Virus record (IMG/VR): IMGVR_UViG_3300022891_000003
Span: 1-63,221 of that record
Strand: one strand, 5' to 3'
From: a virus
Lineage: Duplodnaviria > Caudoviricetes
DNA length: 63,221 bases
Positions 29,905-59,241 of this stretch are shown here, one piece after another. The notes beneath the pieces were generated by a model, which saw only the letters and a program-made list of their open reading frames with translations, was not told the origin of the DNA and ran no database searches. Made by a program: the position numbers and the translations under genes. Position 1 is the first letter of the stretch. Each line of letters starts with the position of its first letter.

Positions 29905-29920
29905 ACTACCCGGGAGGGTA
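29905..29920 (+). promoter_or_regulatory. GGGA-loop RBS hairpin
   Basis: AC-TACCC-GGGA-GGGTA before ATG 29924. Confidence 0.75.
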
Positions 29921-29923
29921 ATC

Positions 29924-30130
29924 ATGAACCAGGAACTCCGCGCCCAGCAGGTCGAAATCCTCCAGGAGCGCATCACCAACGGCCAGGCTCAGCTCCTCAA
30001 GGAGGTCGCCGCCGGTAACCGGGCGGTCGCCCACACCCTCGTGAACGACATCATCGACGCGCAGCGGGACCTGGAGGACATGGGCGCCAAGCCCTACGCC
30101 GGTACTCACGAAGCCAACTTCACCGCCTGA
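29924..30130 (+). CDS. Hypothetical early protein
   Basis: Behind promoter and RBS hairpin. Confidence 0.7.
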   Translation: MNQELRAQQVEILQERITNGQAQLLKEVAAGNRAVAHTLVNDIIDAQRDLEDMGAKPYAGTHEANFTA

Positions 30131-30195
30131 GCCCACGGTTGGGGCACGTCTCGCACGTGCCCTTTCCCGGTCGCTCAGACCATCAAGCATCGGCT

Positions 30196-30211
30196 ACTAG
30201 CTCGGGAGAGC
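30196..30211 (+). promoter_or_regulatory. GGGA-loop RBS hairpin (covariant stem)
   Basis: ACTA-GCTC-GGGA-GAGC before ATG 30215. Confidence 0.7.
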
Positions 30212-30214
30212 ACA

Positions 30215-30667
30215 ATGGAAAAGAAGATGACCCGCGCACAGATCCAGGTGCGCAACACCCGACGCGCGGCGCACGTAGCCTTCCTGGTCGGTGCTGCGGC
30301 CAGCCTGGCGGCCAACGTGTACGCCAGCCAGCACACCGTCGTGGGGTGGATCGTGGGCGCGTGGCCCGCGCTGGCGCTCCTCGCCGGTATCTACCTGTAC
30401 GAGAACGCACCCAAGGTGTGGTGGATGAAGGGCACGCTGGGTGTGCTGATCGCAGCGGCAGCCTGGGCCAGCTACTGGCACCTCGTGCACGTCATCGGCA
30501 GCACTGGGGCTGACAAGGTGACCACGTACGTGCTCCCGCTCACAGTGGACGCCATGATGGGCATCGCGCAGGCCGTGCTCAAGCACGTCACGTGGCCTCC
30601 CACCCGCCCCACCACCCGCAGGAAGGCTCCGGCAGCGAAGCCGGTGCGCAAGCTGAAAGCAGTCTGA
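30215..30667 (+). CDS. DUF2637-like membrane protein
   Basis: ASLAAN...AWP...AAWASYWH...LPLTVD. Confidence 0.65.
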   Translation: MEKKMTRAQIQVRNTRRAAHVAFLVGAAASLAANVYASQHTVVGWIVGAWPALALLAGIYLYENAPKVWWMKGTLGVLIAAAAWASYWHLVHVIGSTGADKVTTYVLPLTVDAMMGIAQAVLKHVTWPPTRPTTRRKAPAAKPVRKLKAV

Positions 30668-30686
30668 GAATTTCTCGCCGGGGTCC

Positions 30687-30716
30687 TTGTGACCCCGGTC
30701 TCTCGGATGATAGTGT
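30687..30716 (+). promoter_or_regulatory. Early promoter
   Basis: TTGTGA-N18-TAGTGT then TCTCA. Confidence 0.6.
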
Positions 30717-30753
30717 GGTCTCATCAGCAAGGGGAACACACAAGGGAGCAATC

Positions 30754-30963
30754 ATGCAGCAGGCAATGGCCACCCAGTCTAGGCTCATCTCGAAGGCCAA
30801 GGAGGCCCGTAGCAAGTACCACGTCGCTCGGGCCGCTCGCCGGGACTCCGGCGCCAACGTTGAGAACAATCGGGAAGCCAAGGCGCGTCGTGCCTACGAG
30901 GCGGCCGTTGACAAGCTCCGCGACTATGAAGCCGCCAACACTCTTGCCCCTGCGTACTTCTGA
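30754..30963 (+). CDS. Hypothetical protein
   Basis: GGGAG RBS, ATG 30754. Confidence 0.6.
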   Translation: MQQAMATQSRLISKAKEARSKYHVARAARRDSGANVENNREAKARRAYEAAVDKLRDYEAANTLAPAYF

Positions 30964-30995
30964 GCCCGGAGCGTGAGGACCGTCTAGCACGGTCC

Positions 30996-31024
30996 TTGCG
31001 CAGGTCCCTCAGGACTGCTAATGT
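30996..31024 (+). promoter_or_regulatory. Early promoter
   Basis: TTGCGC-N17-TAATGT. Confidence 0.5.
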
Positions 31025-31049
31025 GAACACATCACAGCAAGGAACACCA

Positions 31050-31064
31050 ACTACCCGGGAGGGT
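31050..31064 (+). promoter_or_regulatory. GGGA-loop RBS hairpin
   Basis: ACTACCC-GGGA-GGGT before ATG 31069. Confidence 0.75.
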
Positions 31065-31068
31065 CATC

Positions 31069-31473
31069 ATGCAGCTCGCCATCACCATCACCGACAACAC
31101 CGGCTCCGACCTGATCGAGGCTCTGGCCAGCGGTACCGCGCAGGTGCACAGCGTTCGGGAGAACGGCACCACCCGTCGGCGCCACTACCTGACCGGCAAG
31201 GACCTGGAGTACGCCCTGTGGGTGCGCCTCCAGCGCGAGGGCCAGACCGCCGATGAGGCGGAGGGCATCCCGGCGGTCACGCCGCGCAGCATGGCCAGCA
31301 TCGCCAAGGAGATGCACGTGAGCATCGCGGCCATCCGGCGTATGCTGGTGGACCTGGCCATCACCGAAGAGCTCGAGGAGCTCGAGGCTGACGAGCTGGA
31401 GGCCATGCTGATCGGCAGCGACGAACTCAACGAGCAGCCGCACGAGGATGTTCAGCTCACCGAGGTCAACTGA
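31069..31473 (+). CDS. HTH DNA-binding protein
   Basis: SMASIAKEMHVSIAAIRRML; acidic tail. Confidence 0.65.
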   Translation: MQLAITITDNTGSDLIEALASGTAQVHSVRENGTTRRRHYLTGKDLEYALWVRLQREGQTADEAEGIPAVTPRSMASIAKEMHVSIAAIRRMLVDLAITEELEELEADELEAMLIGSDELNEQPHEDVQLTEVN

Positions 31474-31505
31474 ACTACCGGGGCGGCTACAGCCGCCCCA
31501 AGCAA

Positions 31506-31593
31506 GCCCCTGTAGCTCGAATATGTACTGGGTAGAGCATCCGCCGACCACTGTGAGGCGGGCAGGTTGCCGGTTCGAGTCCGGCCAGGGGCA
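31506..31593 (+). ncRNA. tRNA-like RNA 1 (enlarged D loop, 11-nt anticodon loop)
   Basis: GCCCCTG/CAGGGGC acceptor, GCTC/GAGC D stem, GCCGG-TTCGAGT-CCGGC T arm. Confidence 0.75.
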
Positions 31594-31623
31594 CGCAAGT
31601 AAGAACCCAGTCAGGAGGACGCA

Positions 31624-31956
31624 ATGGGGAATGAAGAGCACCCGTTCAGCATGGGAAGCCCGCGTGACGCGCTGGTGAACCTGGTCGAGCGCGCACTGCG
31701 CGCGGAAGCCGGGGTTCGGGAGCAGCAGACCAACGGGAAGCCCACCGGCTACTACGCAGGACGCAAGGCCGGGTTCGTGGCCAGTGCGGCCACCTTGGCC
31801 AGTATGCTGTTCGGCACCGACTACGAAGCCGCCAAGGCCACCATCAGCAAGAGCGTGGCGGATGCGGGCAAGGGACTGCTCTCCAGCGACCTGCGGCGGC
31901 CCAGCTTCGCGGGCCAGCTCGCCACCGAGATCACCAACTCCGCCCTCAACCTGTAG
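31624..31956 (+). CDS. Hypothetical protein
   Basis: AGGAGG RBS. Confidence 0.65.
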   Translation: MGNEEHPFSMGSPRDALVNLVERALRAEAGVREQQTNGKPTGYYAGRKAGFVASAATLASMLFGTDYEAAKATISKSVADAGKGLLSSDLRRPSFAGQLATEITNSALNL

Positions 31957-32036
31957 CTCCGACGAACCCCACCGGCCGGAGTGCTTCCCTAGGCGCTCCG
32001 GCCTTCCCTTACCCTGTAGCCACTGGGAGGTAGCCC

Positions 32037-32207
32037 ATGCGTACCGCGCTGCAACTGTTCACGTTGGCCTGTCTGCTCATCACGCTGGTGTTCGGAATAG
32101 CCACGGCCTGCACCATCATGAGCTACGAACCGCTCCCGCAACCGACCACTCAAACGTACTGCGATAAGTACACCGACCAAGAGATATGTCCGGAGGACAG
32201 ACCATGA
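32037..32207 (+). CDS. Small membrane protein
   Basis: GGGAGG RBS, N-terminal TM, ATGA coupling. Confidence 0.45.
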   Translation: MRTALQLFTLACLLITLVFGIATACTIMSYEPLPQPTTQTYCDKYTDQEICPEDRP

Positions 32208-33091
32208 ACCCCACCCGCCCCTCCTTCCGCAGGCTTGCCGCTCTTATCGCGACGCTGGCGCTGCTGGCGACCCCGCTCGGGGGCAGCTCGGCACACGCCG
32301 CGCCTAGCCGCGCCAAGGCGCAATGCGGCCCGACCAAGGTGGCCAGCCACAAGACCGCTACAACCGTAGCCCCCGAGAACACCGTTGCGGGCATCAACGC
32401 CGTTCCTGCGCAGGGAGCGGGGGTGGTGGAGCTTGATGTCCAGTGGACCAGCAGCGGGTTCCCCGTCCTGATGCACGACGCTACTGTGAACCGCACCACC
32501 AACGGTACCGGCGAGCCGAGCACACTCAGCCTGAGCGCCATCACCGCGCTCAGCGCCGTCGATGATCCGGCTACCACCTGGAAGACCGACCCCAGGTACA
32601 AAGACGTGAAGGTACCGTACGGCTGGGACTTCATGAACGCCGCGCAGGCGAACAACCTGGACGTACTCGTTGACGTGCACGCGGAGCCCACCCAGCTCGG
32701 GATGGAAAAGCTGGTCAACTACATGGACCGATGGAGCTACCGAACCCGTACGACCATCATGAGCACCTCCGCGCGCATCCAGGCCATGAAGTCCTGGTAC
32801 CCCGGCCTCAACTACGCACTGATCGAGTATCCCCCGAACGGGCGGAGCTACACGCCGAGCTACCTCAAGAGCATCGGAGCCGGTGCGTACGTGATCCCCG
32901 TGCAGAGCCTGAGCCAGCTCGGCGGAGCGGACTTCGTGCAGTACATGCACGCGCAGGGTGTGAAGGTGTTCGTGTGGACGAGCGACAGCGCGGCCCTGGA
33001 CTCCATCTCCGGTTGGGCCAAGGTGTTCGACGTGCAGGCGGACATGCTCATCACGAACGACCCCGCCGGTGCGCTTGCGCAGTGCCTCTGA
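32204..33091 (+). CDS. Secreted glycerophosphodiester phosphodiesterase (GDPD family)
   Basis: Signal peptide (RR, AHA); SHK..PENT, VELDV, VLMHD, VFVWT, LITND. Confidence 0.8.
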   Translation: MNPTRPSFRRLAALIATLALLATPLGGSSAHAAPSRAKAQCGPTKVASHKTATTVAPENTVAGINAVPAQGAGVVELDVQWTSSGFPVLMHDATVNRTTNGTGEPSTLSLSAITALSAVDDPATTWKTDPRYKDVKVPYGWDFMNAAQANNLDVLVDVHAEPTQLGMEKLVNYMDRWSYRTRTTIMSTSARIQAMKSWYPGLNYALIEYPPNGRSYTPSYLKSIGAGAYVIPVQSLSQLGGADFVQYMHAQGVKVFVWTSDSAALDSISGWAKVFDVQADMLITNDPAGALAQCL

Positions 33092-33113
33092 ATCTCATAG
33101 GCTGACCCTACCA

Positions 33114-33127
33114 ACTACCCGGGAGGG
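33114..33127 (+). promoter_or_regulatory. GGGA-loop RBS hairpin
   Basis: ACTACCC-GGGA-GGG before ATG 33132. Confidence 0.7.
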
Positions 33128-33131
33128 CAAA

Positions 33132-33701
33132 ATGGCCAGCAAGATGTGCAGCGCTTGTGGTAAGCGTCGGGTCGCCACCGGCAAGTCCAGCGGCTATGAG
33201 GACAAGGCGTACTGCGCGCAGCAGGACCTCTGCTACCCCTGCGGGGACGAGGGCCAGATGTCCATCAACCACGATAACGGCCACGAGAGCTACCCCGAGG
33301 CGGAGTGCTGGGGATGCCACCCGGAACTCGACGAGAGCGCCAAAGACCCCAAGGCGGTGACCACCGGCCCCAAGGCGCAGGGTGCTCGCCGCCCGCAGCT
33401 CAACCACAAGGGGCACAGCCACCCGCAGACCCCGGCCGCGCGTCGGGAATGCAAGAAGCTGTTCTGGGCCAGCATGACCATAATGCCGAGCGACCTGGAG
33501 CTGGCGGAAGCTATGGGCTCCTGGGACGCCAAGCTCGACGGAAACGGTAAGCTCTGGGTGGCTGTTCCCGGTACGAAGGTGGAGGCCGCCACGGACGGCA
33601 GCGGCAAGACCCGTCCGGCCAAGTGGAACGTTGCTCCACTCGGCCCCAAAGGCGGCGTCGGGCACAGCCTGAAGGTTGCTGCGAACAAGGCTTCCAAGTA
33701 G
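33132..33701 (+). CDS. Cys/His-rich hypothetical protein
   Basis: CSAC, CYPC, CWGC, HSHPQTPAARREC. Confidence 0.65.
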   Translation: MASKMCSACGKRRVATGKSSGYEDKAYCAQQDLCYPCGDEGQMSINHDNGHESYPEAECWGCHPELDESAKDPKAVTTGPKAQGARRPQLNHKGHSHPQTPAARRECKKLFWASMTIMPSDLELAEAMGSWDAKLDGNGKLWVAVPGTKVEAATDGSGKTRPAKWNVAPLGPKGGVGHSLKVAANKASK

Positions 33702-33775
33702 CCCGCTACGCCCCGTGAGAGCCCATGCCCTGATAGGGTGTGGGCTCAAGCATTTCCCCAGCCAAGGAGGGCTTT

Positions 33776-34213
33776 ATGCGGTTCAAGTTCGTGCAGGCGT
33801 TCATCGCTCTGCTCGCTTCAATCGGCCTGTTCGCCGCCTCGCCGGTGTACCCGGTCCAGGCCGCTCCGATCGCGAACTGCGACGACGGTCGGCTGTGCCT
33901 CTACGACGGCACGAACTACGGGACCTACAACTGGACCCAGTACGACATCTCCTGGATCGCGACGTGGCCCAACGGCTGTCTCAACCTGCCGAGCGGCTAC
34001 AACAACAACATCAGCTCGTTCATCCTGAACCCGACTGAGAACCAGAAGAACACCACGATGTCGAGCTACTACGTGCGCATGCACATGAATGCGAACTGTG
34101 CCGGGTACCCGACGCCGATCGGCGAGATGACGGAGTGGACCGAGCCCAACCTCACCGTGACTGACTGGGGCAACGTCAGCAACGCCATCACCAGCATCTC
34201 CATCCGCAACTAG
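33776..34213 (+). CDS. Secreted peptidase-inhibitor I36 / beta-gamma-crystallin-like protein
   Basis: Signal peptide; C..G.LCLY...NY.G, NNNISS and NAITSI motifs. Confidence 0.7.
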   Translation: MRFKFVQAFIALLASIGLFAASPVYPVQAAPIANCDDGRLCLYDGTNYGTYNWTQYDISWIATWPNGCLNLPSGYNNNISSFILNPTENQKNTTMSSYYVRMHMNANCAGYPTPIGEMTEWTEPNLTVTDWGNVSNAITSISIRN

Positions 34214-34239
34214 CTCCACGCACGAATCGGGCCGGGGTC

Positions 34240-34269
34240 TTGCACCCCGGCTCGACTGCGTGATAGAGT
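34240..34269 (+). promoter_or_regulatory. Early promoter
   Basis: TTGCAC-N18-TAGAGT then TCTCA. Confidence 0.65.
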
Positions 34270-34292
34270 TATCTCAACAGCAAGGCACCACC

Positions 34293-34308
34293 ACTCAGCC
34301 GGGAGGCT
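34293..34308 (+). promoter_or_regulatory. GGGA-loop RBS hairpin (covariant stem)
   Basis: ACTC-AGCC-GGGA-GGCT before ATG 34312. Confidence 0.7.
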
Positions 34309-34311
34309 AGC

Positions 34312-34884
34312 ATGAGCACCAAGCACTTCGATCAGACTCTCGCTCTCAAGACCCTCGGTAGCATCATGAAGGAACACGGCATCACGCACGCCGAGCTGCA
34401 CGCGGTGTTCCCGGAGCGGCCGACCACCGAAGACCAGTGCACCGAGGTTGCCGCTTGGCTCAGCCGCAAGATCACGGAGCGCAAGGCTGGGAGCACCAAC
34501 CCTCCCGCCCCTCTTCCGCAGGCCAGGCCGAAGTTCGTCACGGCCGAGATGCTGCCGGAGGGCAACTACGCGGTGCCCGGCAAGGACGGCGGGAAGACCC
34601 GCTTCTACCGGGTGAGCCACAAGGAGGGCAAGGGCAAGTGGGCAGGCACCACGTTCGTCAACATCAAGGAGCGCGCTAGCGACGACCTGTACGACATGGC
34701 TAGCAAGAGCGCCGAGGCTGCTGCCAAGTGGGCCATCTTGGACTACGGGTACGAGCGGTCTCGCCTGCTGTTCTCCGAGAAGTACGACGCTTGCTGGCAC
34801 TGTTTCCGTGGCCTCACCGACGAGGACAATCTGTACAAGGTCTACGGGCTCGGTCCGGTGTGTGGCCCGAAGATCATGGGCTGA
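34312..34884 (+). CDS. DUF6011-like Zn-binding protein
   Basis: CWHCFRGLTD...GLGPVC. Confidence 0.7.
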   Translation: MSTKHFDQTLALKTLGSIMKEHGITHAELHAVFPERPTTEDQCTEVAAWLSRKITERKAGSTNPPAPLPQARPKFVTAEMLPEGNYAVPGKDGGKTRFYRVSHKEGKGKWAGTTFVNIKERASDDLYDMASKSAEAAAKWAILDYGYERSRLLFSEKYDACWHCFRGLTDEDNLYKVYGLGPVCGPKIMG

Positions 34885-34941
34885 TCTGGAGGCCCCGGGG
34901 CTACCCGGGGCACCCCGCCACTCTGTAGAGTGGTCTTACCT

Positions 34942-35018
34942 TCCCGCCTGGCGCAATTGGTCAGCGCGCTCCGGGGTGCAAACTCGGAGGGGTGTCAGTT
35001 CGACTCTGACGGCGGGAG
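34942..35018 (+). ncRNA. tRNA-like RNA 2 (7-bp anticodon stem, GCA centred)
   Basis: TCCCGCC/GGCGGGA, GCGC/GCGC D stem, CTCCGGG-GTGCAAA-CTCGGAG, GTCAG-TTCGACT-CTGAC. Confidence 0.75.
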
Positions 35019-35031
35019 CGCAAGCGCAACC

Positions 35032-35046
35032 ACTACCCGGGAGGGT
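35032..35046 (+). promoter_or_regulatory. GGGA-loop RBS hairpin
   Basis: ACTACCC-GGGA-GGGT before ATG 35052. Confidence 0.75.
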
Positions 35047-35051
35047 CAGCA

Positions 35052-36041
35052 ATGAACAGCAACCCCATGCTCGCCAAGATTCGCGCTCTGCTCGACAAGG
35101 CAGAGTCGACCACCTTCCCCGAAGAGGCGGAGGCGTGCCGGACCAAGGCTGAGCAGCTCATGGCCAAGTACCGTATCGAAGAGGAACAGCTCATCGCGAG
35201 CGACCCCACGGCGCTCTCGCCGGTATGGGGAGATACTCCGCTAGTGAAGCGGAGCAGCTTCTACAGGATGAACTACTGGTCGATGTTCTGGGCAATTGCG
35301 GAACACGCCGGTATCCGGGTAAACCCCGAGTGGCTGATCCAGGATGGGGAACTTCACCTGGTGGCGCACACTGTCGGCTACGAAGCCGATCTGCGGTACG
35401 CGGAGGCTCTGTTCACAAGCGCGCGTATGGTGTTCACCGAGAAGCTGGAGCCGCAGATCAACCGCAGCATGACCGAAGAGGAGAACATCTTCCGGCTGCG
35501 TGCGGCGGGTATCGAGCGAGTCCGTATCGCAGACATGGTTTGGGGCATGGGCTCCCGGCACGACAAGCGGCTGCTCAGCAAGGTCGGTCGGGTGTACGCG
35601 GCGGAGTGCAAGCGACGCGGCGAGACCCCTGCGGTGGCGGGGAGGGGAGTGACCGGTGCCGCCTACCGCGAGCAGTACGCCGAGCAGTTCGTGGTCACGC
35701 TGAGGGTTCGACTGCGCAGGGCTCGCCAGGCGGCTAGCACTGGCGTAGTGCTCCACGGTCGCCAGGAGCGCGTCAACGAGGCGTTCTACACACGCTTCCC
35801 CCACCTGCGGCCCCGCCCGATTAGCGGCGAGCTGGAAAGCGACCGGGCGCCCGTTAAGAAGTGTGAGAAGTGCGCCAAGAGCAAGCGCGGTGCCTGCACG
35901 GAGCACTACATCCCCGTGGGCCGGTCTTCCGGTGGCCGGGACTACTACAGCGCGGCAGCGGTGCGCGGCCGGGAAGCTGGCGCGGCAGCGGCTCGTAACG
36001 TGGACCTTGGTCCTGGCGGTCGCGGAAAGCTCGAGGGCTGA
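35052..36041 (+). CDS. DUF2786-domain protein
   Basis: KIRALLDKAEST...EEAEAC..KA..LMAKY. Confidence 0.8.
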   Translation: MNSNPMLAKIRALLDKAESTTFPEEAEACRTKAEQLMAKYRIEEEQLIASDPTALSPVWGDTPLVKRSSFYRMNYWSMFWAIAEHAGIRVNPEWLIQDGELHLVAHTVGYEADLRYAEALFTSARMVFTEKLEPQINRSMTEEENIFRLRAAGIERVRIADMVWGMGSRHDKRLLSKVGRVYAAECKRRGETPAVAGRGVTGAAYREQYAEQFVVTLRVRLRRARQAASTGVVLHGRQERVNEAFYTRFPHLRPRPISGELESDRAPVKKCEKCAKSKRGACTEHYIPVGRSSGGRDYYSAAAVRGREAGAAAARNVDLGPGGRGKLEG

Positions 36042-36043
36042 CC

Positions 36044-36244
36044 ATGTGCCAGACGGTGGCGGAGGTGCGGGCACACGTGCTCGCCCTCCTAGACCGGGGC
36101 TACAGCCCCGAAGAGTGCGAAACCATGCTCGAGGCAGCCATCCTTACCGGCGGCTGTATTCTTCGGGCTACGGCCCTTTCAGACCCGACCAACGTACTGA
36201 TGCAGGAGGTGACCGAAGATGGCGCAGCCCCGAGGCCCAGTTGA
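36044..36244 (+). CDS. Hypothetical protein
   Basis: GAGGG RBS. Confidence 0.5.
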   Translation: MCQTVAEVRAHVLALLDRGYSPEECETMLEAAILTGGCILRATALSDPTNVLMQEVTEDGAAPRPS

Positions 36245-36434
36245 CATTCTGGGTGTTACCACCCGGACCAATAGCAGCGCTGACCGATACTGTGCTAGCG
36301 AGGCGTGCCCGGTGCCTCTCATCGAGGTGGGCAAGACGTACGAGCGGGTGGCCCGCGACGAGCACACGTTCGAGAGTTACCACCCCGCGTGCTTCGGGGA
36401 AGAGTTCGGGGAGCGGAGGCTTTACGGTGACTAA
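36219..36434 (+). CDS. Small Zn-finger-like protein
   Basis: C....C...YHPACF; GGAGG RBS. Confidence 0.55.
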   Translation: MAQPRGPVDILGVTTRTNSSADRYCASEACPVPLIEVGKTYERVARDEHTFESYHPACFGEEFGERRLYGD

Positions 36435-36568
36435 GTGCCCGGTCAAGTGGAATCCGGTAACGTGGCCGTACGTCACCTCGTGCTCTTTGGAGCGGGGCCA
36501 TGTCGGCAGGCATCAAGACAAGGCGGGCAACGAGTTGCTTAACATCCCCGGCCAAGAGGAGGCCGAAG

Positions 36569-37192
36569 GTGACTAACTGGCTGGCAGACCCGGTCGCGTG
36601 TGCGATACGGCTCAAGAAGGAAAGCGGGTGCACGATCTTGGCAGGAAGGAACGAGGTCATGAGCCGGACCACTCTGGTGAACCGGGAAGAGAAGCCGAAG
36701 GGGGCGATGTACCGCTGGGGCCACCTGTTCGTTCGGGTGGACGGCAAACCCGGCGAGGTGCGGCAGTTCGTCCCTGGCACTAGCGACGGGAGCGGCAACG
36801 AGGCGGGTCATATGCGCCTGAGCGCCGAACACGCCAACGTGATGAGCGACTTGCTTCGCGCGGCGTACGTGAACGCAGGCGGCAGCAACTGCGGCGGCAA
36901 GACGCTGTACGAGATGATCTGGGACGAGATGATGGTCGTAACGGACCGGCTAATGTCGGACGTGGAGGCCGACCAGGAAAGCGACCCGGACGACGTGGGC
37001 GCGGCGCGCAGTCTGGCGTGGGTCATCGCCGTGATGCAGAACCCGTACCTGCCGAACGTGGACGCCGTGCGTGAGCAGGTCATGGAGCGTTGGGATGCCA
37101 TGGACCACGAGCCCGCCCCGGGGCAGCTCACGGAGAAGGAGAACAGGTTGCGAGAGCGTCGCATGTCGAGGAGGGCTCGTCGCCGTGGGTAG
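36569..37192 (+). CDS. Hypothetical protein (start 36569 or 36659)
   Basis: Good codon usage, operon context. Confidence 0.6.
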   Translation: MTNWLADPVACAIRLKKESGCTILAGRNEVMSRTTLVNREEKPKGAMYRWGHLFVRVDGKPGEVRQFVPGTSDGSGNEAGHMRLSAEHANVMSDLLRAAYVNAGGSNCGGKTLYEMIWDEMMVVTDRLMSDVEADQESDPDDVGAARSLAWVIAVMQNPYLPNVDAVREQVMERWDAMDHEPAPGQLTEKENRLRERRMSRRARRRG

Positions 37193-37349
37193 CCTGTTCG
37201 AGTGGGAAGAGCCCAATCCGGACTGCAAGGAGTGCCAGGAAGAAGGGCTCGTGCCTGCGCGCAACCCGGGGGACATGCACGAGCCTAAGCCGTACACCGG
37301 CGAGCTCGATTGGGACCGTGACCCGGTCTTGCACCCGTTCGTCGACTGA
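37185..37349 (+). CDS. Hypothetical protein
   Basis: GGAGG RBS; CxxC. Confidence 0.45.
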   Translation: MGSLFEWEEPNPDCKECQEEGLVPARNPGDMHEPKPYTGELDWDRDPVLHPFVD

Positions 37350-37357
37350 CGTAGAGT
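37329..37357 (+). promoter_or_regulatory. Early promoter
   Basis: TTGCAC-N17-TAGAGT. Confidence 0.6.
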
Positions 37358-37370
37358 GACCGTAGCAACT

Positions 37371-37385
37371 ACTACCCGGGAGGGT
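37371..37385 (+). promoter_or_regulatory. GGGA-loop RBS hairpin
   Basis: ACTACCC-GGGA-GGGT before ATG 37389. Confidence 0.75.
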
Positions 37386-37388
37386 TAC

Positions 37389-37700
37389 ATGAGCATCTTG
37401 GGAGAGCGAGACGGCCTTGCCGTAGAGATCAGCGAACTGATCAATGCGATAGCCGATGACCATGAACTTATCGAGGAGTATCAGGAAGGCGACCCGCCGA
37501 GCTTCACCATCACCGACGTTCACGAGCCGAAGAAGACGGACAACATTCTGTTCGTAACCACTAGCTCCGGGAACCGTTTTCGCATTGCGGTGGAAGTGGC
37601 AGAAGCGGAGACGTACGTGCCGCCAAAGCGCCCCGGCAAGACAGATAAGCAGAGAGCCTTCGAAGATCGCACTGACTTCCCTGGTTGGGAGAACCTGTGA
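37389..37700 (+). CDS. Hypothetical protein
   Basis: Start defined by the RBS hairpin. Confidence 0.65.
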   Translation: MSILGERDGLAVEISELINAIADDHELIEEYQEGDPPSFTITDVHEPKKTDNILFVTTSSGNRFRIAVEVAEAETYVPPKRPGKTDKQRAFEDRTDFPGWENL

Positions 37701-38407
37701 GCCGCCAGGAGCGCGGCGCGATGCGTCGCAAGCTGGCTGAGCGCAAGGCCCGGGAGATTGTCGAGCAGGCTACCGCCAAGGTGGTGGCCGCTCGGCCCTC
37801 CCAGCCCTCCTCTCCGCAGGACCAGGCACAGGAGTGCAAGCGCCTGCGGGACGGCGGTATGGTGTGGTGGCTTATCGGGCAAAAGCTGGGGCTGGCGGGC
37901 CAGGCCGGGAGTGCCAGCGAGCCCGAGGCTAAGCGTGGTGCGGGGGCAGCCAGGCGGCTGTACGCGGCTGCGAACCGGGGCGAGGTGCCGCGTACCCAGC
38001 GGCAGCGCGCTGGCACGGTGGCCAAGCCAACCGGCCCGGCGAGTCGGGGCGTGCCCGCGTACATGCGCAAGGAAGCGCTCGTGCGTGATGGCCATGTGAT
38101 CCCCCGGGACCTGCCGGATGAGGAAGTGGAGGCCATGCTGGTCGGTCGTCGCATCGAATGGGCTATCGACATGGCCAAGCTGACCAATACGGATCCGGAG
38201 ACCTGGGGGCCAGAGGACGGTCGTTGGGTGCGGCAGGAGGCCAAGGTACACGTTGACCCGCAATGGGTGCGCGTAGTGCGTGACGAGGATACAGAAGAGC
38301 GCATCCTGTACTTCCGGGAGTACAACGGCTTTGACACCGATCGGCAGAAGCACATGAGTGGCCCCACGCGGGTCATACGAGTCGACAGCATCTACACCGT
38401 CGCATAA
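37697..38407 (+). CDS. Hypothetical protein with possible HTH
   Basis: LRDGGMVWWLIGQKLG. Confidence 0.6.
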   Translation: MSRQERGAMRRKLAERKAREIVEQATAKVVAARPSQPSSPQDQAQECKRLRDGGMVWWLIGQKLGLAGQAGSASEPEAKRGAGAARRLYAAANRGEVPRTQRQRAGTVAKPTGPASRGVPAYMRKEALVRDGHVIPRDLPDEEVEAMLVGRRIEWAIDMAKLTNTDPETWGPEDGRWVRQEAKVHVDPQWVRVVRDEDTEERILYFREYNGFDTDRQKHMSGPTRVIRVDSIYTVA

Positions 38408-38426
38408 CTAGCCAGGAGGAGAAGCC

Positions 38427-38717
38427 ATGGCTGAAAAGATCACACCAGGCAGCAAGTACGCCCGGCTCGTGCTGGGAGTGCGCAAGCTCCAGCGCGGCCA
38501 GGTGTACGTAGCCACGAAGGGGCACGACTTCAACTGCCTACCGCAGAGCTTCCAGAATGTCGTGCATCTGGTCGCCCGTAGCAAGGAGGGCAACTGGAAG
38601 GCCACGACCGCCATTGTGGGCAACCAGGTGTTCTTCGCGTACTACGAAGCGCGGGACTACATGAAGCCGAACATGCCCGCGATGCCGCTTGTGCGCAAGG
38701 CGCGGGGAGAGCAATGA
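38427..38717 (+). CDS. Hypothetical protein
   Basis: AGGAGG RBS. Confidence 0.6.
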   Translation: MAEKITPGSKYARLVLGVRKLQRGQVYVATKGHDFNCLPQSFQNVVHLVARSKEGNWKATTAIVGNQVFFAYYEARDYMKPNMPAMPLVRKARGEQ

Positions 38718-38843
38718 GCGACCAGGTCAAGTACTGGATCATGGGCTTCGTCTGGGGTGTAGCCCTCACGCTCTCTGTGCTCGCCCTGGTGATGATGGTG
38801 GTGGCGTCCGACTGAGATTCGTAGTCCAGCTCATCGCACGGCA

Positions 38844-38872
38844 TTGTGACGGTCGATGGGCTAGGCTATGGT
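38844..38872 (+). promoter_or_regulatory. Promoter for helicase operon
   Basis: TTGTGA-N17-TATGGT then TCTCA. Confidence 0.55.
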
Positions 38873-38887
38873 TCTCATAGCTGTTCT

Positions 38888-38901
38888 ACTAGCCGGGAGG
38901 C
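38888..38901 (+). promoter_or_regulatory. GGGA-loop RBS hairpin
   Basis: ACTA-GCC-GGGA-GGC before GTG 38906. Confidence 0.7.
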
Positions 38902-38905
38902 CGCA

Positions 38906-40825
38906 GTGCGTATCGAAGCCCATCTTGCCGAGAAGGTCAACCGCATCGAAGTGCGCATGTTCGGTAACGGCAGCAAGAGCGATGCGTACACCAGCACCCG
39001 CAAGGCGGTCTCGGCCAGCCGGTACGTCGGACAGCTCGACAACGGGTGTAAGTTCTGGTACCCGCTGAGTGCCGACAAGTGCGTAGAGATGCGGGAGGTT
39101 TGGGGCAAGGACCTGAAGGTGCACAAGGCGCTGGGGGATTGGTACCGCAAGGCTGCCGCTCTGCGCGCAGCTCAGGTCGCCCGCACCACTCAGACCGACG
39201 CAGAGCTGCCAGCCCTGGCCGCGCAGTACCCCAAGCTGAACGCCTGGCTTAAGGGCGACCAGCGCGTCACAGCGGCTTGGATCGCTAACGCGTACCGCAA
39301 CGGCGGTCTGCTCGCTGACGAGGTGGGTACCGGCAAGACGGCTGGTGTGGTGGCTGGCCTGGTAGAGGCGGACATCACTGGCCCGACGCTCATCGTTTGC
39401 CCCAAGATCTCGGTTCGCGCCGTGTGGCTGAAGGAGTTGCGCGCACATACGGACATCCCGGTCTATGCGTGCAGTGGCAGTCGCAAGGCTCGCGAGAAGA
39501 CCATTACCGAGTTCCTGACTGACCCGAGCGAGTTCAAGGTGCTGGTGGTCGTGGCGGAGATGCTGCGCATTCGGGCCATCCGCGAGAAGGGGCGTATCAC
39601 GGAGGAGCTCGGCTTCGAGTACCCGGCGCTCTTCCCGGTGCGGTGGTCGGCTGTCGTGATCGACGAGAGCCACAAGGTGCTCGGTGGTCTCGATGTGGTC
39701 AAAGGCAATCTGGCTGGGGAGGGCATCAAGCGCCTGAGCTACACGCCCAACAGTTTCAAGCTGGCCGTGAGCGCTACCCCATTCGGCAAGGGAGGCAAGG
39801 TAGAAGCCCTGTTCGGCACGCTGCACTGGCTCTGGCCGGACGAGTTCACTAGCAAGTGGGCCTGGCTGGGCCGGTACTTCGAGGTCTACGATGAGAAGGT
39901 GTTCATCCGTGGCGGCCGAGGTGCCACCAAGCCGGTCAAGCGCATCGGCGCTCTCCAGAACGAGGCTGGCCTCTGGCGGGACCTGGGGCCACGCGTGCTT
40001 CGCCGTACCATGGAGGAGGTCAGCCCCGAGCACCGTGGCCTCAAGAACTGGATTGAGATACCGTGCGAACTAGATGGTCCGCAGCTCGCGCAGTACCGGC
40101 GCTTCGCAGATAACGCCGAGCTGGCCGTAGAGGGCGGCATCATCAGCACGGTCGGCGTACTCGACTTCCTGACCCGTTGCCGTCAGTTCGCTAACGGGCA
40201 ACTGCGGAAAGAGGGCGGGAGGGTTGTCTACACCGGCTACTCCGCCAAGATCGACCGCCTGCTGGCGCACTTGGCCGACAAGCACCCCGGCCGCAAGGTG
40301 GTCATCGCCAGCCAGTACAACGAGTTCCTCGACGCGGTGCAGGCTCGCTTGCACGCCGAGGGCTACGGCACGTACCGGCTCGACGGCAGCACGACCGAGA
40401 AGCGCCGTAACGACATGATGAACGCCTTCCAGGGTGACCCCACCTTCACCGGGCCGGACGTCACGTGCCGCAACTGCCAGGTCGGCCGAGGCAAGCCGCA
40501 CGGAGCTAAGTGCCTGGCTGCCCGCCCCGAGCTGTTCCTGCTCAACACGCAGGCCGGTGGCGTCAGCATCACGCTTGACGCGGCCGACGAACTGCACGCC
40601 CTTGACGAAGCCGACCCGGACACCATGACCCAACTCTTCGGGCGCATCTTCCGGCGCGGTCGGGCGCACGAGGTGTTCTTCTACACTTACCGGGCCATGG
40701 GCACCATCGACGAGGAGCTCGGCCTGAACGTGGCCGACCGGCAAGAAAAGCAGCGGCGTCTACTCGATGGCCGTCGCGGTATTGAGTACGCCCGCCAGAT
40801 CGCCAAGTACAAGAAGGAGTCGTGA
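38906..40825 (+). CDS. SNF2-family (SF2) helicase
   Basis: LLADEVGTGKT, VIDESH, SATP, AGGVSITL, QLFGRIFR. Confidence 0.9.
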   Translation: MRIEAHLAEKVNRIEVRMFGNGSKSDAYTSTRKAVSASRYVGQLDNGCKFWYPLSADKCVEMREVWGKDLKVHKALGDWYRKAAALRAAQVARTTQTDAELPALAAQYPKLNAWLKGDQRVTAAWIANAYRNGGLLADEVGTGKTAGVVAGLVEADITGPTLIVCPKISVRAVWLKELRAHTDIPVYACSGSRKAREKTITEFLTDPSEFKVLVVVAEMLRIRAIREKGRITEELGFEYPALFPVRWSAVVIDESHKVLGGLDVVKGNLAGEGIKRLSYTPNSFKLAVSATPFGKGGKVEALFGTLHWLWPDEFTSKWAWLGRYFEVYDEKVFIRGGRGATKPVKRIGALQNEAGLWRDLGPRVLRRTMEEVSPEHRGLKNWIEIPCELDGPQLAQYRRFADNAELAVEGGIISTVGVLDFLTRCRQFANGQLRKEGGRVVYTGYSAKIDRLLAHLADKHPGRKVVIASQYNEFLDAVQARLHAEGYGTYRLDGSTTEKRRNDMMNAFQGDPTFTGPDVTCRNCQVGRGKPHGAKCLAARPELFLLNTQAGGVSITLDAADELHALDEADPDTMTQLFGRIFRRGRAHEVFFYTYRAMGTIDEELGLNVADRQEKQRRLLDGRRGIEYARQIAKYKKES

Positions 40826-41802: not shown

Positions 41803-42312
41803 ATGCCGCGCACCCGAAAGACCGCCCCGGCGCCCGAGCCCGAGGTCGCCGAGACCGAGGAGACCGCCGGTAGCAAGCGCGGTCCGAACGAGCTCACTAC
41901 TGTCTTCGTCGGCTGGCTCAAGGACACCTACGGCGTCGACGCCGACCCGGAGGTCGTGTACCTCGCTCAGACCACCCGGCGCGAGTTCCGGGAGTCCGAC
42001 GCCTACCAGGACTACCTCGAGGCGGCCGAAGAGCGCAAGGAGGCGGCGGCGAAGGCGAAGGCCGAGCGCGCCCAGGCAGCGGCAGCGGCGGCCGAGGAGA
42101 CCACCTCCGAGGAGCCCGCGAAGCCCACCACACGCAGTCGTTCGCGCAAGGCGGCGGCGCCGGTGGCGCAGGCCGAGCCGGAGCCCGCGAAGCCCACCAC
42201 ACGCAGTCGTTCGCGCAAGGCGGCGGCAGCTCCGGCCGGTGCCGAGGCCGACGCGCCTGCCGAGGCCGCGAAGCCCGCGCCCCGTACCCGCACCCGCAAG
42301 GCGCCGTTCTAG
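41803..42312 (+). CDS. Histone-like/nucleoid-associated protein (putative)
   Basis: AAGGAG RBS; Ala/Lys/Pro/Arg-rich tail with duplicated EPAKPTTRSRSRKAAA. Confidence 0.65.
   Translation: MPRTRKTAPAPEPEVAETEETAGSKRGPNELTTVFVGWLKDTYGVDADPEVVYLAQTTRREFRESDAYQDYLEAAEERKEAAAKAKAERAQAAAAAAEETTSEEPAKPTTRSRSRKAAAPVAQAEPEPAKPTTRSRSRKAAAAPAGAEADAPAEAAKPAPRTRTRKAPF
42111..42227 (+). repeat. 48-bp exact direct repeat (42111-42158, 42180-42227)
   Basis: GGAGCCCGCGAAGCCCACCACACGCAGTCGTTCGCGCAAGGCGGCGGC twice. Confidence 0.9.
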
Positions 42313-42347
42313 TAGGACCCCGAGCATGTTGAAGGCGTGCTCGGTTC

Positions 42348-45786: not shown

Positions 45787-45827
45787 GCTATAGTAATCTC
45801 ACGGGTCAGTCACTCAGCCGGGAGGCT
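45787..45827 (+). promoter_or_regulatory. -10 element (TATAGT, TCTCA) plus GGGA-loop RBS hairpin
   Basis: TG-C-TATAGT; ACTC-AGCC-GGGA-GGCT at 45812-45827. Confidence 0.65.
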
Positions 45828-45831: not shown

Positions 45832-46032
45832 ATGAACACTTTATACGCCGTCACTCCGAGCTTCGGCTACACGCCCTGCGCACCTCGCGTGTACGTCAGA
45901 GCCTCTAACTGGCAGGCCGCAGTGACCGTCGCACAAGCCATTACCCCTAACGTTCACAGCTGTCGCCCGACACACTGGCCGGTGGCTCTGGTCACGCACG
46001 CACCACCGAACGCAACGGTGCACGGTGCCTGA
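45832..46032 (+). CDS. Hypothetical protein
   Basis: Start defined by the RBS hairpin; atypical codon usage. Confidence 0.5.
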   Translation: MNTLYAVTPSFGYTPCAPRVYVRASNWQAAVTVAQAITPNVHSCRPTHWPVALVTHAPPNATVHGA

Positions 46033-46181: not shown

Positions 46182-46318
46182 GCCTCCTAGATCCCCGCCG
46201 CGCCAGCCCTAGCCAAGAAAAAAAGAGGCCCCTCACGTGCGTGCGCGTCGCGACGCGCGACACGCGAGGCGATGGTTTTTGTTTGGCCAGCCGCCAGACC
46301 GCCGGGGATCTAGGAGGC
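46182..46318. promoter_or_regulatory. Large inverted repeat/cruciform, candidate replication origin
   Basis: 16-bp perfect IR GCCTCCTAGATCCCCG/CGGGGATCTAGGAGGC enclosing A/T tracts and palindrome CGCGTCGCGACGCG; upstream of primase-helicase. Confidence 0.6.
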
Positions 46319-46745: not shown

Positions 46746-46747
46746 CA

Positions 46748-50612: not shown

Positions 50613-50867
50613 AGGCCCGTAACGTAGACCGCATCATCCTTACGCTCATCGCCGTCGGGCTCATCGGCGGTATGACGTACGTGGTGGTGACCAGGTGAAG
50701 GCGTGGGAGCTTAAGACCGGCCAGCGCATCCGGCACAGCGTCGAGGTGGTTTACTTGAAGACCATCAGTCACACCATGGGTAACATCATCCACGTTACTG
50801 CTCGCCGACCGAACGGGGAGTTGATCAACCTCCAGCTCCTTCGCGAGTGGGACGTGGAGGTCGTGCA

Positions 50868-57273: not shown

Positions 57274-57373
57274 CGCCGCACGAACAGTGCCCGCTCAAGG
57301 AGAAGCACGGCTATCACGAGTGGTACAAAGGACCTTTCCGACGTCAGTGCAAGGGGAGAAAGAAGGCAGCCAA

Positions 57374-58066
57374 GTGAACAAGATTCTCGTAGTGGGGGCA
57401 CGGCCCCGGTCTATCGGCAGCGCCATCGCCAAGGTTGCCGAGAGCAAAGAGTACGAAGTGGTGCTGGCCGGTATCCACAACGAAGACGTGAAGATGGATG
57501 TGGTGGCCGACGCCATCGGCAGCTTGCGGGAAAAGCTGGTGCGCATCAACCCCGACCACATCATCTGCACGGTCGGCATGAACATGCCCGAGTCCGCCAT
57601 GGCCGACGATCCGGCCGACTGGTACCGCTGGCACTTCGAGACCAACGTGACCGGTCCGATGCGGTTGTTGCAGGCGTGGACCGACGTGAACAAAGACCGC
57701 AGCATGCTCAAGCACTACGTCGCCATCAGCAGCAACAGCGCCCGAGTGCCGCGCACCGCTTCAGCCGCGTACTGCGCTAGCAAAGCGGCCCTCTCGCAGG
57801 CCCTGCGGGTGAAGGCGCGGGAGGGAGAAGGCGGCGACAAGTGGGGAGTCGTGGTCTACGGCTACGAGCCTGCGCTCATCGCCGCGACGCCCATGACCGA
57901 GGAGGCGGCCCACAAGTGGGGTGCCGACAACCTCACCCGCATGCGCGGTTCTGGGCTGGCAAGGGGCATCTGGGTCGGCTCTTTTGCCCAGTACGTAGTG
58001 CACGGCCTACATCTCGGGCCTGCCATGAACGGCATGCTGGTGCCGTTTGATGGGGATGAGCGCTGA
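57374..58066 (+). CDS. Short-chain dehydrogenase/reductase
   Basis: VVGA...IG, N..G, ISS, YCASKAAL. Confidence 0.85.
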   Translation: MNKILVVGARPRSIGSAIAKVAESKEYEVVLAGIHNEDVKMDVVADAIGSLREKLVRINPDHIICTVGMNMPESAMADDPADWYRWHFETNVTGPMRLLQAWTDVNKDRSMLKHYVAISSNSARVPRTASAAYCASKAALSQALRVKAREGEGGDKWGVVVYGYEPALIAATPMTEEAAHKWGADNLTRMRGSGLARGIWVGSFAQYVVHGLHLGPAMNGMLVPFDGDER

Positions 58067-58252
58067 ACGGCCCGTTAGGGTTGCGGTGGGCAGTTTGGTG
58101 TGGCAAGGTTTGCCCCGTGAAACTGGTACGCGACATCGCATGCTTCCTGGCTTTGCCTGCCGGTCTTGTGCTGGGGCTGGCAGGCCACATGGTGAGAGTA
58201 GCGGGGTAAGGCCCCCCGACCCGCTCTCTCCGCAGGGTTGGCCCACCCTGCG

Positions 58253-58321
58253 ACCCCTGCTAGCCGCCGCCCGTGGAGGGATGGCGTGGGATTACTGCCC
58301 GTTCGAGTCGGGCCAGGGGTA
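58253..58321 (+). ncRNA. tRNA-like RNA 5 (acceptor + T arm, single internal hairpin)
   Basis: ACCCCTG/CAGGGGT; GCCCG-TTCGAGT-CGGGC. Confidence 0.65.
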
Positions 58322-58358
58322 CGACGCCGCACAGTGCGGCGCGATTGAAAGGAACGCA

Positions 58359-58904
58359 GTGAACAACGAAGAGACCATGATCGTGATGACCAAGGACCAG
58401 CTCGCGGCGACCAAGAAGAAGGGTCGTCGCATCCTCGGCATCCCGGCCATCATCGCCGCCCCCATCGCGGCCGTTCTCGCCTTCGGCGGCGTCGCCCTCG
58501 CGGCGATCCTGTTCAGCATGACCGGCTCGGCCACGGCGCAGGCCGACAACGGCACCACCCCGACCATCTCCGGCGAGCACTTCAGCGGCAAGTTCTACCC
58601 CGGCGCGGAGCGGGACCTGATCTTCACGGTCAACAACACCAACGAGTTCCCGGTCAAGGTCACCAGCATCGCCGCGACCGGCATCTCGGACCTGACGGCG
58701 GGCTGCGAGGGCGGCGCCAAGCTGAGCGGCTTCGCCACGGCGTTCAACCAGGACAAGGCGCTGGCCGGTGGTGGCGTCACGGTTCCGGCCGGGGACTCGG
58801 CCGTCGTGACCATCCCCAAGGCGGTCAAGCTGCACCCGTCGGCGACCGCCGGGTGCGGCTTCAAGATCAACCTCAAGGTAACCGGCTCCGGCGCGGGAAA
58901 CTAA
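58359..58904 (+). CDS. Secreted pilin/fibre-like Ig-fold protein (short form)
   Basis: AAAGG RBS, GTG 58359; KKKGRR + hydrophobic + ALA signal peptide; YPG...F.V.N.N.FPV motif; two Cys. Confidence 0.75.
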   Translation: MNNEETMIVMTKDQLAATKKKGRRILGIPAIIAAPIAAVLAFGGVALAAILFSMTGSATAQADNGTTPTISGEHFSGKFYPGAERDLIFTVNNTNEFPVKVTSIAATGISDLTAGCEGGAKLSGFATAFNQDKALAGGGVTVPAGDSAVVTIPKAVKLHPSATAGCGFKINLKVTGSGAGN

Positions 58905-59011
58905 CCGGGCTCGCTCGTACCGGCGGCAACCTCTGGCCGCTTGCGGCAGCTGGAGTCGCGCTGGTACTGGCGGGTGTGCTAGTTCGAAGGGTAGGGTTTG
59001 GTCATGGGTAG
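58895..59011 (+). other. Predicted -1 frameshift site and LARTG sortase-anchor extension
   Basis: G_GGA_AAC at 58895-58901 immediately before TAA; -1 frame reads LTGLARTGGNLWPLAAAGVALVLAGVLVRRVGFGHG*. Confidence 0.75.
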
Positions 59012-59123
59012 TAAACCACCGAAGACACCACCGTCAAGGCCGATTCGCCAACCCGCCAAACCGCAGTACCCGAAACCGGCCCCCACCCCTCGGCCAGCGC
59101 CGAGGCCAGGGCCCAAGAGGTAA
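59004..59123 (+). CDS. Pro/Arg/Lys-rich peptide
   Basis: MGSKPPKTPPSRPIRQPAKPQYPKPAPTPRPAPRPGPKR, followed by a hairpin. Confidence 0.4.
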   Translation: MGSKPPKTPPSRPIRQPAKPQYPKPAPTPRPAPRPGPKR

Positions 59124-59156
59124 CACGCGGGGTCGGCCGCCACCGGCCCCGCTTAC

Positions 59157-59214
59157 GCCCCGAGCCAGCTAACACCTGGGCAGGAAACCAGCGGTTCGAA
59201 TCCGCCGAGGGGCA
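59157..59214 (+). ncRNA. tRNA-like RNA 6 (minimal)
   Basis: GCCCC/GGGGC-A-CGCA; CCAG/CTGG hairpin; GCGG-TTCGAAT-CCGC. Confidence 0.55.
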
Positions 59215-59226
59215 CGCAGTACCACG

Positions 59227-59241
59227 ACTACCCGGGAGGGT
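59227..59241 (+). promoter_or_regulatory. GGGA-loop RBS hairpin
   Basis: ACTACCC-GGGA-GGGT before ATG 59244. Confidence 0.75.

Follow-up and report, generated by a model that had tools for sequence, protein, structure and literature searches.

A covarying GGGA-loop hairpin over the ribosome-binding sites of first cistrons in uncultivated actinophage-like viruses

The DNA analysed here, referred to as the window, is the complete IMG/VR virus record IMGVR_UViG_3300022891_000003 (63,221 bp, G+C about 63%), and the subject is a small hairpin element that overlaps the Shine-Dalgarno sequence (SD) in front of ten of its genes. All convincing genes of the window lie on the + strand. The products of the left half include a terminase, a MuF-like protein with an ADP-ribosyltransferase domain, a protein of tape-measure size and a Dit-like tail protein. 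The right half encodes an SNF2 helicase, a PD-(D/E)XK nuclease, an AAA_24 ATPase, a primase/helicase-like protein, a UDG-family protein, a dCTP deaminase, a DnaE-type polymerase III alpha subunit and ThyX, together with three tRNAs. The nearest cultured relatives are phages of Streptomyces, Arthrobacter, Microbacterium, Nocardia, Gordonia and Mycobacterium, and since these best cultured matches are actinobacterial phages with less than 50% protein identity, the phage was treated as an uncultivated actinophage-like virus.

Each copy of the element consists of the trinucleotide ACT, no or one extra base, a 4-nt 5' arm, a GGGA loop and a complementary 3' arm, followed after 4-7 nt by a start codon, which is ATG in nine cases and GTG only at 38906. 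Loop and 3' arm together form the Shine-Dalgarno sequence GGGAGG, and the GGGA loop fits the GNRA pattern. ACT adjoins the 5' arm directly in seven of the ten sites and is separated from it by an extra C or A in the other three. Five stems read ACCC/GGGT, two AGCC/GGCT and one GCTC/GAGC. In the remaining two the outermost pair is mismatched (ACCC/GGGC at 33132 and AGCC/GGCC at 38906), so that the invariant stem comprises 3 bp. The sites are given below with the position of the loop, the score in the covariance model R1, which was built from the alignment of the ten window sites (A1), and the gene that follows; G001 (63,111 bp), G002 (64,705 bp) and G003 (62,375 bp) are complete related genomes, and ORF stands for open reading frame.

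29905..29919, + strand: ACT-ACCC-GGGA-GGGT, loop at 29912, R1 30.6 bits; ATG at 29924, 68 aa, no orthologue in G001-G003
30196..30211, + strand: ACTA-GCTC-GGGA-GAGC, loop at 30204, R1 27.2 bits; ATG at 30215, multi-pass membrane-like protein of 150 aa
31050..31064, + strand: ACT-ACCC-GGGA-GGGT, loop at 31057, R1 29.5 bits; ATG at 31069, 134 aa
33114..33128, + strand: ACT-ACCC-GGGA-GGGC, outer A.C mismatch, loop at 33121, R1 31.7 bits; ATG at 33132, 189 aa with Cys-rich N-terminus
34293..34308, + strand: ACTC-AGCC-GGGA-GGCT, loop at 34301, R1 29.4 bits; ATG at 34312, 190 aa
35032..35046, + strand: ACT-ACCC-GGGA-GGGT, loop at 35039, R1 29 bits; ATG at 35052, 329 aa, DUF2786
37371..37385, + strand: ACT-ACCC-GGGA-GGGT, loop at 37378, R1 33 bits; ATG at 37389, 103 aa
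38888..38902, + strand: ACT-AGCC-GGGA-GGCC, outer A.C mismatch, loop at 38895, R1 26.8 bits; GTG at 38906, SNF2-type helicase
45812..45827, + strand: ACTC-AGCC-GGGA-GGCT, loop at 45820, R1 25.7 bits; ATG at 45832, 66 aa, no orthologue in G001-G003
59227..59241, + strand: ACT-ACCC-GGGA-GGGT, loop at 59234, R1 27.9 bits; ATG at 59244, 52-aa ORF just upstream of the ThyX gene

A search of the window for ACT, 4-5 nt and GGGAG with three inner pairs returned 10 sites on the + strand and none on the - strand, against a mean of 0.23 and a maximum of 3 in 300 dinucleotide-preserving shuffles. All ten hairpins that a first-pass annotation of this DNA had placed before these starts were found where it had put them, in far greater number than the 0.23 expected. 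Its description of them as ACT(A/C)-stem-GGGA-stem was right as to the motif and required two corrections, the extra base after ACT being present in only three of the ten and the outer pair being mismatched in two. Model R1 recovered exactly the ten sites in the window (25.7-33 bits), with the next-best match at 12.7 bits. Neither R1 nor pattern searches found the element in the virion half (positions 1-29,900), in agreement with the earlier remark that it was not seen before virion genes. Rfam matched the window at E <= 0.1 with one tRNA and one weak snoRNA-model hit, none of them at the ten sites. The hairpin TGTCC-GGA-GGACA before 32204, which had been proposed as a related form, is present at 32187-32199; it was excluded from the family because it has no ACT, a loop of 3 nt and no R1 match, and because its gene, which overlaps the upstream ORF, lacks an orthologue in G001-G003. 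Three further places may hold decayed or variant copies: ACTAGCC-AGGAGG with two remaining pairs at 38403-38426, before the start at 38427; CACT-GGGA-GGTA at 32021-32036, before the start at 32037; and an ACT-AGCC-TGGTA-GGCT hairpin without SD at 29721-29746, just past the stop at 29729.

Related phages were found by exact-word scans of viral and metagenome contigs, which yielded 12 element-carrying contigs, namely the three complete genomes and nine fragments (G004, G006-G008 and the metagenome loci L229, L241, L259, L263 and L264). Proteins of the window and of G001-G003 are only 27-85% identical, which indicated that these relatives form a deep clade. Each complete relative carries 10-12 copies of the element, on the gene strand only and in the non-virion part only.

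In order to assess the pairing without circularity, sites were collected from 13 genomes or fragments by a structure-agnostic rule (ACT, 4-5 nt, GGGAG, and ATG or GTG within 10 nt opening a reading frame). The three inner pairs were kept in 79 of the 81 distinct sites, some of the relatives having been found through words that hold both arms of the consensus. The stems of the 79 paired sites were CCC/GGG (45), GCC/GGC (21), CTC/GAG (10), ACC/GGT (1), GCC/GGT (1) and TCC/GGG (1), so that G.U-type pairs are tolerated. One of the two unpaired sites, at position 282 of the window, is a chance match within a gene; the other, in G001, is a real gene start whose flank does not pair. An outer, fourth pair was formed in 47 of the 79 sites and unpaired in 32, which again limits the conserved stem to 3 bp. 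In the model-fitted alignment A2, pair 2 was CG in 39 and UA in 5 sequences and pair 3 was CG in 34, GC in 8, AU in 1 and GU in 1, neither of them ever unpaired. The covariation score of A2 (0.370) was reached by none of 500 shuffles, and slid controls gave at most 0.054.

Moreover, orthologous genes in different genomes carry stems that differ and are still complementary. The 34312 family has AGCC/GGCT (twice), ACCC/GGGT, GACC/GGTC and GGCC/GGCT, the 31069 family ACCC/GGGT (three times), GCTC/GAGC and AGCC/GGCA, and the helicase family AGCC/GGCC (twice), ACCC/GGGC, AGCC/GGTT and ACCC/GGGG; a further variant, ACTC/GAGT, occurs in L259. In sites other than the search word itself, an inner pair was never broken by a one-sided change. 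The ten sites with the CTC/GAG form keep the pairing while their SD is weakened to GGGAGA. That this change weakens the SD and restores the pair argues for a constraint on pairing no weaker than that on SD strength. The claim of the first-pass annotation that the stem changes compensatorily and that structure is conserved beyond the SD was thereby supported in 13 genomes or fragments.

Further parts of the element are conserved as well. When hairpins before start codons were searched without requiring ACT, it was present at all of the 42 such sites that the four complete genomes have in their early regions. The first loop base (G1) and the closing C-G pair showed no variation in the structure-agnostic set. 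The five nucleotides 5' of the stem are nearly free of G (0-1 G of 55 at positions -5 to -9), and the distance to the start codon is 4-9 nt, with 5-6 nt in 48 of 55 sites. Ordinary SDs of the phage genome are of the AGGAGG type with a purine-rich flank, without ACT or 5' arm. The hairpin alone has a predicted energy of -4.4 to -5.0 kcal/mol, and it forms part of the minimum-energy fold of positions -38 to +18 in seven of the ten window sites. These results showed that more is under selection than pairing with the ribosome requires, namely the stem pairing, the ACU, the closing C-G and G1 of the loop.

The element stands in front of first cistrons. In a hand-made list of 53 genes between 28.4 and 62.7 kb, with predicted gene starts, it stands before 10 of the 21 whose upstream gap is 32 nt or longer and before none of the 32 others (Fisher p = 1.8e-5). 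The earlier view that these genes are mostly first in their transcripts was supported, as the element marks cistrons that follow a gap, a promoter or a tRNA. The promoter-like pattern TTG[CT]-18..22-TAnn[GT]T lies 13-26 nt 5' of the element at five of the ten window sites, which are listed below; the pattern is our own and also matches the - strand of the window nine times, and a generic promoter/terminator scan of the window did not rise above its shuffles.

29850..29878, + strand: SigA-like promoter-like module (TTGC..., 19-20 nt, TAGAGT; pattern only), 26 nt 5' of the ACT of site 29924, followed by the leader TCTCTCATAAGCA
30996..31024, + strand: promoter-like module 5' of site 31069 (pattern match)
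34240..34269, + strand: promoter-like module 5' of site 34312 (pattern match), TTGCA in the loop of a GC hairpin
37329..37357, + strand: promoter-like module 5' of site 37389 (pattern match), within the 3' end of the preceding ORF
38844..38872, + strand: promoter-like module 5' of site 38906 (pattern match)

Promoter-like boxes were recognized by eye at two further sites (33132 and 45832), and at 35052 the element lies 12 nt past tRNA-Cys (34942-35019). No clear promoter was seen at 30215 and 59244. A T-arm-like word, GGTTCGAATCC, was noticed 5' of site 59244 (59186-59215), where neither ARAGORN nor Rfam reported a tRNA. A GC hairpin, CCGGGG/CCCCGG at 34232-34250, has similar counterparts 5' of 31069 and 30215 and in G001-G004. 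Many promoter modules begin with such a hairpin. The stems of these hairpins covary, their 7-nt loop is TCTTGCA, TCTCGCA or TCTAGCA, and the loop is located at or beside the putative -35, with which they look like terminator-promoter composites. Directly 3' of the -10 box, most early promoter modules carry the conserved leader TCTCTCATCAGCAAGG, both within and between genomes. Similar copies in the window lie at 29879-29895, 30717-30732 and 34270-34285, with equivalents in the relatives, and this leader could be an operator or a signal of the initial transcribed region. At 30687-30757 the same promoter and leader are followed by a plain SD (ACAAGGGAGCAATC-ATG at 30758) without ACT or hairpin, likewise in G002 and G003. 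Because a promoter occurs with a plain SD at this site and the hairpin occurs without promoter after tRNA-Cys, the two are separable. The distance from ACU to the stem is fixed at 0-1 nt, whereas that from promoter to element varies from 10 to 28 nt.

The 31069-31473 product is the best conserved small early protein, with orthologues of 60-67% identity at L072:10263-10625:-, L076:16870-17253:- and L079:11482-11850:+. Its C-terminal half resembles a helix-turn-helix by eye (RSM.SIA.ELH.S...RR.L), and the protein, itself encoded behind a hairpin, might regulate the promoter modules.

Searches beyond the clade gave little. Among the 2,641 terminase matches at E <= 1e-30, the best 120 were 52-100% identical and all metagenomic. 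Megablast of window positions 29,000-39,000 against phage records returned no match, the five nearest cultured phages had no R1 match better than E = 0.25, and blastn with 35 nt of the element gave matches at the level of the SD only. A look at related loci of the DUF2786 protein encoded by the 35052 gene yielded one distant fragment without a convincing element, and a literature search for the motif string gave, among the papers listed, none on phages. A 15-mer scan of bacterial genomes (at least 120 stretches) returned, among the matches listed, scattered single matches in many phyla, with no multi-copy locus and no clue to the host. The phage was contained in four leaf-litter metagenome runs, all of DNA and none of RNA. 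Elsewhere in the window, the 869-aa protein encoded at 8733-11342, in the position of a MuF-like head protein, has a C-terminal ADP-ribosyltransferase exoenzyme domain (Pfam E = 1.9e-20). The two ends (1-135 and 63087-63221) form a 135-nt direct repeat with 99% identity, either a terminal repeat or the assembly overlap of a circularly permuted genome. A 60-nt repeat of 72% identity with an internal GC palindrome occurs near the left end (513-572) and between the 45832 gene and 46482 (46208-46267), and the ORF at 41803-42312 contains a tandem 69-nt duplication (42111-42248, 86% identical).

The conserved pairing and the position over the SD make it very probable that the element is a selected RNA hairpin which acts on translation initiation or on the fate of the mRNA. 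In about ten early or middle transcription units, the leader 5' of the first cistron would carry it as an RNA signal composed of a single-stranded ACU, a stem of 3 bp (often 4 bp) closed by C-G, and the GGGA loop. By itself the hairpin is weak enough for the ribosome to open. The ACU and loop G1 are needed neither for ribosome pairing nor for the stem, and their simplest account is recognition of sequence and shape by a trans-acting factor. That the hairpin works through such a binding protein is quite possible and is put forward tentatively. The element would then be a common operator read by one factor, which may come from the host or be an early protein of the phage without a known family. 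When bound, this factor might hold the hairpin shut or cover the SD and so turn the first cistrons off together; alternatively, it might recruit ribosomes and turn them on. It is also possible, if somewhat doubtful, that this clade of more than 100 viruses shares a translational regulon in which one RNA-binding protein, either an early phage protein outside the known families or the CsrA of a flagellated actinobacterial host, reads the ACU and the GNRA-type SD hairpin and co-times about ten early first cistrons.

Several observations weigh against a regulon of this kind. Most of the data could be explained just as well by a purely cis-acting role or by an RNase site, and the early timing, like the promoters and the gene starts, is predicted. 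The predicted minimum-energy fold omits the hairpin in three of the ten window leaders, one G002 site before a short ORF carries a hairpin without ACT, and the G001 gene start mentioned above has ACT and GGGAG without pairing. The promoter and leader with a plain SD at 30758 show that this class of promoter can do without the hairpin. Recombination of whole cassettes between sites may leave only three or four independent compensatory events. Finally, the search for a factor was negative: Pfam searches of 46 early- and late-region proteins and PHROGs searches of 20 gave no RNA-binding family, no CsrA homologue was found in six frames of the phage, the RegA and RegB families PF01818 and PF10715 had no match in these frames at E <= 10, and an atlas look-up of the Cys-rich 33132 protein returned scores of at most 0.82, in the range that holds no leads. 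The basic N-terminus of the 30215 protein was considered as an arginine-rich RNA-binding peptide and dropped, being part of a multi-pass membrane-like protein. The regulon proposed by the first-pass annotation was thus supported as to structure and first-cistron context, and the protein that should govern it was not found with Pfam or PHROGs.

The element might be a standard ribosome-binding cassette that binds no factor, sets or insulates initiation at first cistrons in cis and travels with mobile terminator-promoter-leader modules through which genes are shuffled. The energy of the hairpin is indeed near the range in which structure starts to limit initiation, a threshold reportedly defined by de Smit and van Duin. 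The GC hairpin recurs together with the promoter and the conserved leader, and four of the ten element genes of the window lack an orthologue in G001-G003 although the module beside them is conserved; the repeats named PeSL in T4-like phages are likewise terminator/promoter composites located at points of gene exchange (PMC4122927). We regard this cassette as unlikely, since it leaves the invariant single-stranded ACU and loop G1 unexplained and since promoter and hairpin can be separated, as at the tRNA-Cys site and at the plain SD of 30758. Alternatively, a host endoribonuclease might cut the single-stranded ACU between A and CU, leaving a 5' end 2-3 nt from a hairpin that protects against 5'-end-dependent decay. 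Mycobacterial RNase E cleaves single-stranded RNA directly 5' of cytidines, preferably after purines and with U at +3 (PMC10641625). The C after a purine in ACU matches this preference, the 5' flank is poor in G, the ACU keeps its distance to the stem while that to the promoter varies, and at 35052 the element follows a tRNA, where processing is expected. However, the +3 position is A or C here and not the reported U, the motif is mycobacterial and may not be that of the host, and the requirement for the GGGA loop beyond its SD role is not accounted for. Such a processing site therefore appears distinctly unlikely.

CsrA dimers act on targets with two or more GGA sites per leader. If host CsrA bound the hairpins, phage early translation would be tied to the Csr/FliW state of the host. 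The likeness on which the first-pass annotation had drawn is real: a short stem with an NGGA loop lies over the SD, where a bound protein would compete with the ribosome, and a GGA in a short hairpin loop was found at 10/10 window sites and 79/81 overall. This is the shape of the high-affinity SELEX ligands, whose consensus RUACARGGAUGU folds to a 3-bp stem with an RGGA loop and has ACA 100% conserved (PMC4347634). CsrA is moreover not rare in the likely host phylum, for in a sample of 201 genomes from the phylum to which an Arthrobacter genome belongs (Actinomycetota) 39 carry it, as does one of five hand-picked actinobacterial genomes. In the Arthrobacter sp. genome G010 (L224:6629-6877:- and L225), the CsrA gene lies in a flagellar cluster beside FlhA, FlhB and a sigma factor, and the leader of the flagellin gene combines a hairpin with a CGGA loop and a stem of 6 bp with a GGAGGA SD, the classic two-site CsrA layout. 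Other parts of the analogy failed. The ACA is absent from the element, the 5' arm of which is ACCC, AGCC or GCTC; a second GGA is scarcer than expected, being present in 11 of 43 flanks upstream and 17 of 43 downstream while 57% of random 42-nt windows contain one; the invariant ACU flank lies outside the CsrA consensus; the phage encodes no CsrA; and 162 of the 201 sampled genomes lack it. Control by host CsrA is hence improbable. It is highly improbable that the site is read in DNA, whether by a dimeric DNA-binding protein for which it would be the operator or by a phage polymerase or sigma factor for which it would be the promoter. The 12-bp core is an inverted repeat, the elements adjoin promoters, and the conserved 31069-family early protein has the helix-turn-helix-like segment noted above. 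Nevertheless, several different half-site pairs coexist in one genome and each site is self-complementary, which is the prediction of base pairing and not of the specificity of one protein. Furthermore, the element occurs on one strand only and at SD distance from starts, and it tolerates G.U-type pairs. No match to a T7-type RNA polymerase was found, a weak absence as the control for that family matched nowhere. ACT...GGGAG as a promoter of a phage polymerase was rejected on the compensatory changes, the SD spacing and, weakly, the missing polymerase.

Returning to the RNA hairpin as the preferred reading, its closest parallel is found in mycobacteriophages. The start-associated sequences (SAS) of Cluster K phages are short asymmetric repeats 3-9 bp before starts, mostly ATG, which contain the SD and are conserved beyond it, with 11-19 copies in a single orientation in the non-structural arm only (PMC3203893), and about half of them are preceded by a module of about 50 bp (ESAS) that combines an inverted repeat with a SigA-like promoter (PMC11373665). 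The phage element is likewise start-proximal, in one orientation, confined to the non-virion half, conserved beyond the SD and present in 10-12 copies. A module that may be analogous to ESAS, with a GC hairpin, a putative SigA-like promoter (TTGC, 18-22 nt, TAnnGT) and the conserved leader, precedes five of the ten window sites by pattern and two more by eye, with no relation to ESAS in sequence. The start-associated repeats which the first-pass annotation had mentioned were thus a better comparison than CsrA, with position, orientation, arm and conservation beyond the SD in common. The two differ in what is conserved. The SAS consensus GGGATAGGAGCCC (13 bp) has no match in the window at up to 2 mismatches and 11 at 3 mismatches, where 24 were expected. 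In five Cluster K phages, 66 of 91 ATAGGAG sites had GGG...CCC flanks; of the other 25 flank combinations four keep three pairs and 21 do not, some of which may be chance ATAGGAG words. Whereas SAS are conserved as sequence, the stem of the phage element varies and stays complementary in 79/81. The element is read as a new structured type of start-associated sequence, outside the SAS and CsrA-target families.

More distant parallels exist in other phages. RegA of T4 represses the translation of about 30 early mRNAs at A+U-rich, unstructured sites (PMC3014915), and RegB is an endoribonuclease that cuts GGAG in early SDs (PMC3014915; PMC1702504). They share with our proposal a post-transcriptional shut-off at the ribosome-binding sites of many early genes, with GGAG as the RegB target, and differ from it in the unstructured RegA sites, in having no homologue in the phage, and in phage lineage and host phylum. 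PeSLs, composite terminator/promoter repeats at gene-exchange points flanking variable genes (PMC4122927), are similar in that variable early genes of the present phage are repeatedly preceded by a GC hairpin, a putative promoter and a leader; a structured SD is not mentioned there as part of a PeSL. The phage element also resembles the nut sites of lambdoid phages, having a conserved single-stranded box, then a small covarying-stem hairpin with a GNRA-like loop, early in early transcripts. Lambdoid nut sites (boxA and boxB) are bound by the N protein, number about two per genome and do not overlap an SD, whereas the phage element overlaps the SD and has about ten copies, and no N-like protein was identified.

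The element is a robust conserved RNA element in a large clade of uncultivated phages. Start-associated repeats of actinophages have been known since 2011, and publications of 2024 and 2025, PMC11373665 among them, still described their role as undefined. As far as literature searches on the motif string and on SAS show, this is the first start-associated element in which the constraint lies clearly on RNA pairing and not on sequence. Its varying stem and invariant ACU and G1 provide a clean mutational design and a bait for a factor. If no factor exists, it would be a compact, portable ribosome-binding module that tolerates varied gene contexts, with some value for the design of expression in Actinomycetota. 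If a factor exists, it would point to a translational regulon in phages of high-GC Gram-positive hosts, like that of T4 RegA/RegB but with a structured operator. By extension, actinophage start-associated sequences in general would then be RNA operators, which would offer a testable mechanism for the SAS puzzle of 2011.

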